Assembly (NCBI GenBank): GCA_000146045.2
Contig: BK006936.2
Coordinates: forward strand, 352,001-416,000
Length of the DNA stretch: 64,000 nt
Reading direction: 5' to 3'
From: TPA_inf: Saccharomyces
Lineage: Eukaryota
The first letter of the stretch is position 1. Each line of letters starts with the position of its first letter. The position numbers were made by a program, and so were the translations under genes. The notes under the pieces are model-generated. The model was not told where the DNA came from, searched no databases, and worked only from the letters and a program-made list of their open reading frames with translations. This document shows, one piece after another, positions 13,976 to 54,032 of the stretch.

Positions 13976-14600
13976 TTAACCGTACATACCCCAATCTTCT
14001 TCCAGTTCTGCTTCAGTTGTATCAATCTCATTAATGATTCGGTGGCCCATAACATTATCTCTGCATAATGGACATGTTGTACTTCGAGATAGCCAGACAG
14101 ACAAACACTCTAAGTCGAACTTATGATGGCAATGAGGTAATTCAACTACTAAGGGGTACTCATCTTCTAAATAATTAGTGTAACAAATGGAGCAGTTGTC
14201 AGTTGCTTTGAGCTTTTTTTTATTGATTCGTGGTAAAGAGGCTGCAAAAGTATCAGGACAGCCCGCACTCTTGCCTTTATCCATTTCTTGCAACCATTCT
14301 TCCTGTAATGATTCTGGAAGCATTTGCGATAATAATCGTAAAAGTAGTGTTGAATCTGAATGTGCATCACCCTCACCACTGGTGTTACCAAAGTTTTGAA
14401 ATAGACCTTGCAGTTGGGATCTGACCTGTCTTCTCTGCTCCTCCTGTGAAGTTCCTCCTACTTCTTGGTAATCCCTTGAGTTTTGTTGTATTCCATGTTC
14501 CTCTAATCTAATGATGAGTGCAGATTAAAATTCGGTTAGTTAATTGGCTTTGGGGAACTTACTTCATAATATATCATTACATACCTTCATATGTAGACAT
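13976..14600 (-). CDS. YBR062C: YBR062C, RING-H2 finger protein of unknown function, 180 aa, spliced. Exon1 is 14585..14600, the intron is 14503..14584, exon2 is 13976..14502
   Basis: Exon 1 is ATGTCTACATATGAAG followed by GTATGT, with an AACTAAC branch-like site. Splicing to the second TAG acceptor gives MSTYEEEHGIQQNS...MLPESLQEEWLQ... and 180 aa. The C-terminus carries a RING-H2 motif (CSICY...HCHHKFDLECLSVWL...CPLCR). Confidence 0.85.
14503..14584 (-). other. YBR062C: YBR062C intron, 82 nt (GTATGT...AACTAAC...TAGATTAG)
   Basis: The 5' splice site GTATGT reads 'acatac' on the + strand at 14579..14584. Two TAG acceptors lie 5 nt apart, and only the distal one keeps the reading frame open. 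Confidence 0.8.
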
Positions 14601-14969
14601 TTTTTTGATTGTGATTATGTTTGATGAATATATCTTTCTATTATTTCTTTAGTAGTTTAGGAGTGGCAAAACTGGTATTATAACGAACTGAGCGCTCCTC
14701 GGTGCAAACAAAAGCCGCCCACAACAATTTTGACCAACTTAGGCAAAATGAAGCCATTACTAGAAAACGAAGAGTATATATCATCACAGTAATTCGGGTA
14801 GGAGAGTTGGTCACCAAAATGGGACTCATATGGAAGGCAAAAATTTCGAGCTTATTCATCATGGTTGTACCCGTAAAGTTTTTGTTTCCGATATATAGAG
14901 TACAGATGTTTTCTAGTTAACAGTTGGCATATCTTACATTTTCCGGATTATGTATCAAATAAACTTTAT

Positions 14970-53877: not shown

Positions 53878-53949
53878 GCTCGCGTGGCGTAATGGCAACG
53901 CGTCTGACTTCTAATCAGAAGATTATGGGTTCGACCCCCATCGTGAGTG
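53878..53949 (+). tRNA. tR(UCU)B: tRNA-Arg (anticodon UCU), 72 nt; first gene of an Arg-Asp tandem pair
   Basis: GCTCGCGTGGCGTAATGGCAACGCGTCTGACT-TCT-AATCAGAAGATTATGGGTTCGACCCCCATCGTGAGTG. It has an A-box TGGCGTAATGG and a B-box GGTTCGACCCC, and the acceptor stem pairs G1-T72...G7-C66. Confidence 0.95.
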
Positions 53950-53959
53950 CTTTGTTTCT

Positions 53960-54031
53960 TCCGTGATAGTTTAATGGTCAGAATGGGCGCTTGTCGCGTG
54001 CCAGATCGGGGTTCAATTCCCCGTCGCGGAG
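53960..54031 (+). tRNA. tD(GUC)B: tRNA-Asp (anticodon GUC), 72 nt; second gene of the tandem pair, 10 bp downstream of tRNA-Arg
   Basis: TCCGTGATAGTTTAATGGTCAGAATGGGCGCTT-GTC-GCGTGCCAGATCGGGGTTCAATTCCCCGTCGCGGAG, with a B-box GGTTCAATTCC. It is followed by the T7 run at 54033..54039. Confidence 0.95.
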
Positions 54032-54032
54032 A

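Follow-up and report, generated by a model that had tools for sequence, protein, structure and literature searches.

Two tandem TAG acceptors in the YBR062C intron of Saccharomyces cerevisiae, the proximal one non-productive, are both used in upf1-delta cells

Here, we propose that the intron of YBR062C, a Saccharomyces cerevisiae gene for a RING-H2 protein, ends in two equivalent acceptors that are in constitutive, leaky competition, and that the product of the proximal one is expected to be removed by nonsense-mediated decay (NMD). We regard this explanation as probable, if short of assured. It draws on published junction reads from upf1-delta cells, in which the distal, productive acceptor is favoured about 4:1 and the proximal one takes 19.2% of spliced junction reads (95% CI 17.1-21.4%). 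Positions below are those of the window, that is, the whole 64,000-nt stretch of DNA that was analysed, and a slash in a splice-site motif marks the point of cleavage.

Anatomy and products of the YBR062C intron

YBR062C is a minus-strand gene, and a script run on the window sequence places its ATG at 14600..14598. The coding part of its first exon, ATGTCTACATATGAAG (14585..14600, minus strand), was delimited by the same script and is followed by a phase-1 intron. A preliminary description of this DNA had spoken of a 16-nt first exon, a length that holds for the coding part alone; the whole exon also contains 5' UTR. The annotated intron (14503..14584, minus strand; sacCer3 chrII:366,503-366,584) is 82 nt long, runs from GTATGT to TAG, and is given both by the script and by S1 Table of Talkish et al. 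(2019; PMC6726248), whose listing has it as a standard "Ares intron". The published intron coordinates fall on the window without any offset and so place it at chrII:352,001-416,000 of S. cerevisiae. Its 5' splice site, GTATGT (14579..14584, minus strand), is the consensus sequence. The sole ACTAAC-type site of the intron is AACTAAC (14535..14541, minus strand; branch A at 14536), which matches 6 of 7 consensus positions, having A in place of the consensus T at position 1, and which was correctly described earlier as non-canonical. The identical branch point, 49 nt from the 5' splice site and 33 nt from the annotated 3' splice site, was predicted by Talkish et al. (2019; PMC6726248), and AACTAAC is, judging from sequence, the branch site that the YBR062C intron probably uses. 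A 5' splice site of the GUAUGU type, a branch site of the UACUAAC type and YAG acceptors within 10-60 nt of the branch make this a standard U2-type intron.

Exactly three AGs lie 3' of the branch: a UAG at 28 nt, a UAG at 33 nt and a GAG at 35 nt from the branch A. The first is the proximal, unproductive acceptor (14508..14510, minus strand), identified by translation and published junction reads; the second is the distal, productive acceptor (14503..14505, minus strand), for which the conserved N-terminus of the protein can be added to the same two kinds of evidence. The two belong to a direct repeat, ATTAG-ATTAG (14503..14512, minus strand), so spaced that the acceptors stand 5 nt apart in a context that is identical from -5 to +1 (AUUAG/A) and differs from +2 on, with AUUA following the proximal site and AGGA the distal one. 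Scanning the intron sequence between the branch and the TAG at 14510..14508 turned up no AG, in agreement with the preliminary description, which had also foreseen that an overlooked AG might upset its scanning argument. One had indeed been missed, the GAG at 14503..14501, and the argument is unaffected by it, the GAG being downstream of both TAGs.

This third AG (14501..14503, minus strand) lies 2 nt 3' of the productive acceptor and matches the class of +2 GAG "slippage" sites that are reported to become active in prp18-delta cells (Roy 2023). Its use would give a frameshifted product of 43 aa, and GAG acceptors were excluded by filtering in the junction data discussed below (Talkish et al. 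2019, PMC6726248). As for the additional UAG, 37% of composition-matched shuffles of the spacer have a YAG 10 nt or more away from the branch. An extra YAG is thus not above chance by itself; it is its use and its retention in most Saccharomyces that go beyond chance.

The products of the two acceptors are very different, and both came out on translation as had been described. Splicing to the proximal TAG retains ATTAG, so that the message reads GAT TAG and encodes only MSTYED before a stop, with the distal TAG doubling as the stop codon of this isoform. Splicing to the distal TAG joins exon 1 to an exon 2 coding sequence (13976..14502, minus strand, including the stop codon) and gives a protein of 180 aa. 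Its RING-H2 assignment is borne out by Pfam, in which residues 106-153 match both zf-RING_2 (PF13639; 45.2 bits against a cutoff of 27.3, E = 1.2e-11) and zf-rbx1 (PF12678; 33.8 bits against a cutoff of 31), and S. cerevisiae proteins that bear the name YBR062C-like share 99% identity with the product. Conservation of the N-terminus MSTYEEEH extends out to Lachancea and Pichia (MSTYEQEH in Pichia), and it is this depth that identifies the distal acceptor as the productive one. Unspliced YBR062C RNA reads MSTYEGM before a stop and is also non-productive. The gene is flanked downstream by a 310-aa FtsJ-type methyltransferase and upstream by a 404-aa ORF, a synteny kept in all the Saccharomyces loci compared.

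Gene models for YBR062C orthologues disagree, with lengths of 102, 115, 149, 161, 183, 184 and 190 aa (the discordant models are among our loci L001-L007 and proteins P0040, P0042, P0048, P0054, P0057, P0060 and P0061). The lengths differ mostly because the 16-nt coding exon was missed, as it often is, and many public gene models of the locus are wrong in consequence. Almost certainly an artefact of annotation, the 190-aa model from S. pastorianus takes as its acceptor an AAG that follows the branch A by 5 nt, and its reading frame runs through both TAGs.

Published junction reads and splicing efficiency

Talkish et al. (2019; PMC6726248) sequenced rRNA-depleted RNA from BY4741 upf1-delta cells after 0 or 60 min of rapamycin, in duplicate and with no wild-type control. 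The annotated YBR062C junction received 164, 156, 429 and 292 reads in their S1 Table, or 1041 in all. Their S2 Table, under "overlapping standard introns", contains a YBR062C intron of 77 nt that ends in a TAG acceptor with a branch-to-3' splice site distance of 28 nt, has its 5' splice site and predicted branch AACTAACC in common with the annotated intron, and corresponds to the proximal junction, with 47, 35, 83 and 82 reads (247 in all). It had been reasoned earlier that spliceosomal scanning should arrive at the first TAG, and junction reads from the distal acceptor alone had been named as the result that would overturn this; the counts agree with neither, since the distal junction prevails and the proximal one is nonetheless present. 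The proximal share was 20.4% at 0 min vs 18.6% at 60 min of rapamycin (chi-square p = 0.50), which lends no support to the suggestion of a built-in unproductive switch.

A mapping artefact is unlikely to lie behind the proximal reads, whose counts are taken as published, since the two junctions differ by an ATTAG that is retained inside the read. The figure of 19% may understate how often the proximal site is chosen, if the isoform with the 6-codon ORF is less stable even in cells lacking Upf1.

A second data set, of much lower depth, contains what is presumably the same junction. Table S5 of Kawashima et al. (2014; PMC3983031) gives 0, 0, 0 and 1 reads for an alternative YBR062C junction in wild type, upf1, upf2 and upf3, and 5, 5, 6 and 4 reads for the annotated junction in the same four strains. 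That study's own numbering puts the alternative site, under the label "*AGA", 4 nt upstream (Kawashima et al. 2014, PMC3983031). Because nearly all of the minus-strand alternative 3' sites in the table read "AGN", we infer that its minus-strand numbering is off by one base, so that "*AGA" would be the proximal UAG/A. At this very low depth, proximal reads number 0/5 in wild type and 1/16 in the upf mutants, the latter being compatible with a share of 19% (binomial P = 0.16). In the same study, the RPKM of the gene is 1.22-1.38-fold up in the three upf mutants, which is compatible with NMD and not specific to it; full clearance by NMD of an isoform making up 19% would predict a rise of 1.24-fold. 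The proximal junction is, therefore, already tabulated in two published data sets, where it was never discussed. YBR062C was not found in the supplements of Schreiber 2015, of Roy 2023 (on Prp18; searched by name and coordinates) or of the Fyv6 paper, and a full-text search for YBR062C returned no paper on its splicing.

The efficiency with which the intron is removed is a separate matter from the choice of acceptor. Before rapamycin (0 min), the log2 ratio of intron to exon 2 signal was -1.04 and -1.09, and at 60 min it was -2.35 and -2.29 (Talkish et al. 2019 S1 Table, PMC6726248). In upf1-delta cells the unspliced signal is thus about 49% of exon-2 coverage at the start and about 20% after treatment. 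The median splicing efficiency of standard introns is about 93% (Talkish et al. 2019, PMC6726248). The YBR062C intron is poorly spliced, which fits its non-consensus branch site, and it gains from the "hungry spliceosome" condition brought about by rapamycin. Rapamycin alters the amount of YBR062C RNA that is spliced and leaves the choice of acceptor alone. Intron retention is a second non-productive fate of YBR062C RNA and a bigger one than use of the proximal acceptor. YBR062C has a weak branch site, substantial intron retention and a leaky acceptor together. At steady state in upf1-delta cells, under the conditions sampled, the productive fraction of its transcripts is perhaps only about 40%.

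Conservation, structure and the choice between explanations

Orthologous loci were reached via protein matches, and the S. mikatae intron was taken from S6 Table of Talkish et al. The coding sequence of exon 1 is identical across all the Saccharomyces orthologues compared. Beyond S. cerevisiae, AACTAAC is invariant in S. paradoxus, S. kudriavzevii, S. uvarum and an S. eubayanus-type allele, and the same four keep a 3' end of T[T/C]AGATTAG/AG, while most of the spacer between branch and 3' splice site has diverged (the introns are 62-83% identical to that of S. cerevisiae) and invariant columns make up only about 27% of the rest of the spacer, as counted from the alignment of those species. The S. 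paradoxus CBS432 allele, CAGATTAG, has a T-to-C change that turns TAG into CAG and so preserves a YAG. The S. eubayanus-type allele (L007:1501-1610) has GTATGC as its 5' splice site and an exon 2 that begins AGAAG. S. mikatae is the exception: in TGAATTAG / TTGAATTAG the proximal AG is absent, with TGA at the place of the proximal TAG, and this species has GACTAAC and then AACTAAA where the others have AACTAAC. The tandem TAG, whose conservation in sensu stricto Saccharomyces had been posed as a question, is thus found as YAG-ATTAG in four of the five species compared with S. cerevisiae and missing from the fifth. The loci of protein P0057 were considered as an extra species and rejected as S. 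uvarum-like.

Within S. cerevisiae, seven alleles (the window and six more strains) are identical over exon 1 and the intron, so that the six further strain loci offered no polymorphism there. Outside Saccharomyces, Naumovozyma dairenensis, Kazachstania africana and Lachancea dasiensis share the phase-1 intron position after 16 nt, no 5-nt tandem YAG was found in any of the three, and Pichia inconspicua is intronless at that position. The conservation score given to the YBR062C proximal site by Talkish et al. (2019; PMC6726248) is 0.60. The text examined of their S. bayanus table, which concerns an NMD-competent strain with only 50 reads at the annotated junction, has no second row at the proximal 3' end, which carries no information either way. 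From the species comparisons, the tandem acceptor is ancestral to Saccharomyces, kept in most lineages and lost in one, a pattern that suggests tolerance or weak constraint, unlike that of an essential element.

What might then cause the distal acceptor to prevail? RNA structure was one option raised by the preliminary description. In S. cerevisiae only, UUUUAAUCUG is predicted to pair with UAGAUUAGAG in a hairpin of 10 bp with a 10-nt loop that spans all three AGs (14501..14530, minus strand). At -6.5 kcal/mol it has a z of -1.34, a fold equalled by 21 of 200 shuffles, and it is probably not significant. Base-pair probabilities, computed for six alleles in four sequence contexts, predict about equally low unpaired probabilities at both AGs in S. 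cerevisiae, a proximal AG that is open and a distal AG that is paired in S. paradoxus, and a mixed picture in the remaining species. A consensus structure sought by RNAalifold across the alleles contained no shared pair. A downstream branch at CACTCAT, which would put the branch A 7 nt short of the proximal AG and 12 nt short of the distal one, was also considered and rejected: it matches the consensus at only 4 of 7 positions and is not conserved.

The explanation that we favour, leaky competition, would operate as follows. In an ordinary U2-type intron, two equivalent AUUAG/A acceptors lie at permissive distances of 28 and 33 nt from the branch A, and after the first catalytic step the spliceosome would dock either AG. 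The distal AG would be chosen, or would survive at steady state, about four times as often. About one fifth of spliced transcripts would use the proximal AG, keep AUUAG and shift frame, and the resulting isoform would read the distal UAG as a stop after six codons and be non-productive. In wild-type cells, NMD would be expected to remove these mRNAs. The ratio would reflect splice choice, as opposed to residual differences in stability, and would be constitutive, in the manner of a leaky choice at a low-information 3' splice site and not of a regulated switch. Yeast 3' splice sites have low information content, and flexible choice among them is documented. Published work supplies candidate influences on the choice: Prp18, Slu7, Fyv6 and Prp22 favour sites that are branch-distal (21 nt or more), Prp17 promotes branch-proximal sites (Kawashima et al. 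2014, PMC3983031), and nucleotides on the exon side, together with contacts to U5 loop 1, influence 3' splice site use (Roy 2023).

How does leaky competition compare with other explanations? Strict first-AG scanning, under which most splicing would go to the proximal TAG and the annotated protein would be left to a minor isoform, could appeal to the lack of any earlier AG and to a distance of 28 nt that is normal between branch and 3' splice site. It is already refuted by the 1041 distal against 247 proximal reads obtained even without NMD, and it sits badly with a distal frame that encodes the deeply conserved N-terminus; we give it practically no credence. Structural masking of the proximal AG, of the kind known from APE2, would account for the distal preference and possibly for a dependence on temperature, and we judge it very doubtful. 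The sole G-C pair of the S. cerevisiae hairpin does use the G of the proximal AG, and the distal AG does fall in the weak G-U/A-U base of the stem; the hairpin is nevertheless no better than shuffles, the two AGs are predicted to be about equally inaccessible in S. cerevisiae, and the difference predicted in S. paradoxus goes the wrong way. With single-sequence folds, pair probabilities and RNAalifold giving nothing consistent or significant, we rejected masking as the source of the distal preference, and the stable conserved structure that hides the bypassed AG in an APE2-type intron has no evident counterpart in these predictions for YBR062C.

The more serious competitor is selection. The tandem acceptor could be a selected AS-NMD attenuator or switch, in which a set or condition-dependent diversion of transcripts to decay tunes the dose of a stress-induced RING-H2 protein, and this we consider unlikely without dismissing it. 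In its favour are the persistence of the proximal YAG in all seven S. cerevisiae strains and in S. paradoxus, S. kudriavzevii, S. uvarum and S. eubayanus despite a diverged spacer, the YAG-preserving change in CBS432 against so few other invariant columns, the stress induction of YBR062C, and the greater use under stress of some non-productive sites elsewhere (Kawashima et al. 2014, PMC3983031). Invariance of the tandem in four other species amid a diverged spacer could mean selection for the site, which counts against mere leakiness, as does the retention of a YAG that is somewhat unexpected given that YAG motifs are generally depleted close to yeast intron 3' ends. On the other hand, S. mikatae does without the proximal AG, which makes the site dispensable; the intron occurs without the tandem in Naumovozyma, Kazachstania and Lachancea; bases adjacent to the 3' splice site may be under constraint of another kind; and rapamycin improves splicing with the acceptor ratio unchanged. 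The steady ratio in the single condition compared, rapamycin, is not the behaviour of a regulated switch. A stronger version holds that AUUAG-AUUAG has been kept by selection since the Saccharomyces ancestor, that the proximal share rises in heat, metal or proteotoxic stress and sets the RING-H2 dose through NMD, and that the pair forms a natural position ruler; we think this improbable. If it were true, the identity from -5 to +1 would serve as a natural ruler for positional discrimination between AGs by the second-step spliceosome (Prp17, Prp18, Slu7, Fyv6 and Prp22).

Related systems and neighbouring features

Leaky competition at YBR062C would be one more instance of a class that is well described, the non-productive alternative 3' splice sites that are cleared by NMD. 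The features of this AS-NMD class that we find at YBR062C are a common 5' splice site and branch, the observation of both junctions, and a premature stop. The closest relatives are two introns analysed by Kawashima et al. (2014; PMC3983031). In TAN1, an upstream AAG lies 6 nt from a UAG that becomes a stop, and its two alternative products jointly account for about 20% of the spliced RNA in upf1-delta cells. Like YBR062C, TAN1 has an upstream AG a few nucleotides before the canonical UAG, with the 5' splice site and branch in common and the retained UAG as the premature stop. Unlike YBR062C, which has two UAGs in AUUAG/A and a frameshift of 5 nt, TAN1 has a weaker AAG and an in-frame insertion, and the roles of Prp17 and Prp18 were tested on it (Kawashima et al. 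2014, PMC3983031). In TFC3, 27% of the spliced product is non-productive (Kawashima et al. 2014, PMC3983031). Here too a substantial constitutive share goes to an isoform with a premature termination codon, whose degradation by NMD is a feature of TFC3; the TFC3 site, however, is 17 nt downstream of a weak annotated AAG, whereas that of YBR062C is 5 nt upstream of a consensus UAG.

Two better-known systems are more distant. In the NAGNAG tandem acceptors of animals and plants, adjacent AGs compete, with a partly stochastic outcome. YBR062C likewise has two adjacent AG acceptors in competition, but NAGNAG AGs are exactly 3 nt apart and in frame, whereas those of YBR062C are spaced by 5 nt and produce a frameshift with an immediate stop in place of the gain or loss of one residue; moreover, yeast is without U2AF1-based AG recognition. 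APE2 is reported to be a thermosensor and a case of structure-mediated 3' splice site selection (Meyer et al. 2011; Plass et al. 2012). It resembles YBR062C in having an AG between the branch and the 3' splice site that is used, and a spacer in which a stem-loop can be predicted. YBR062C differs in that its predicted structure is neither significant nor conserved and in that its proximal AG is not silent.

YBR062C is in line with two established points, namely that yeast does not choose its 3' splice sites by a strict first-AG scan and that, for some genes, a measurable part of the output is wasted and presumably cleared by NMD. It also offers a clean natural substrate for the study of position bias, with acceptors that are identical from -5 to +1 and a natural knockout in S. 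mikatae.

Two further features of the window deserve mention. About 65 nt upstream of the YBR062C ATG, at 14662-14670 (plus strand), is AGTGGCAAA, which reads TTTGCCACT on the gene strand. It matches, at 8 of 9 positions, the proteasome-associated control element of Rpn4, GGTGGCAAA. Under HMF stress, expression of YBR062C rises about 2.4-fold alongside that of proteasome genes (PMC3091778).

Far from the gene, at 53878-53950 and 53959-54032, ARAGORN and Rfam identify a tRNA-Arg(UCU) and a tRNA-Asp(GUC), both on the plus strand and about 9 nt apart. The pair (53878-54032) is presumably the classic co-transcribed tRNA-Arg/tRNA-Asp pair of yeast.
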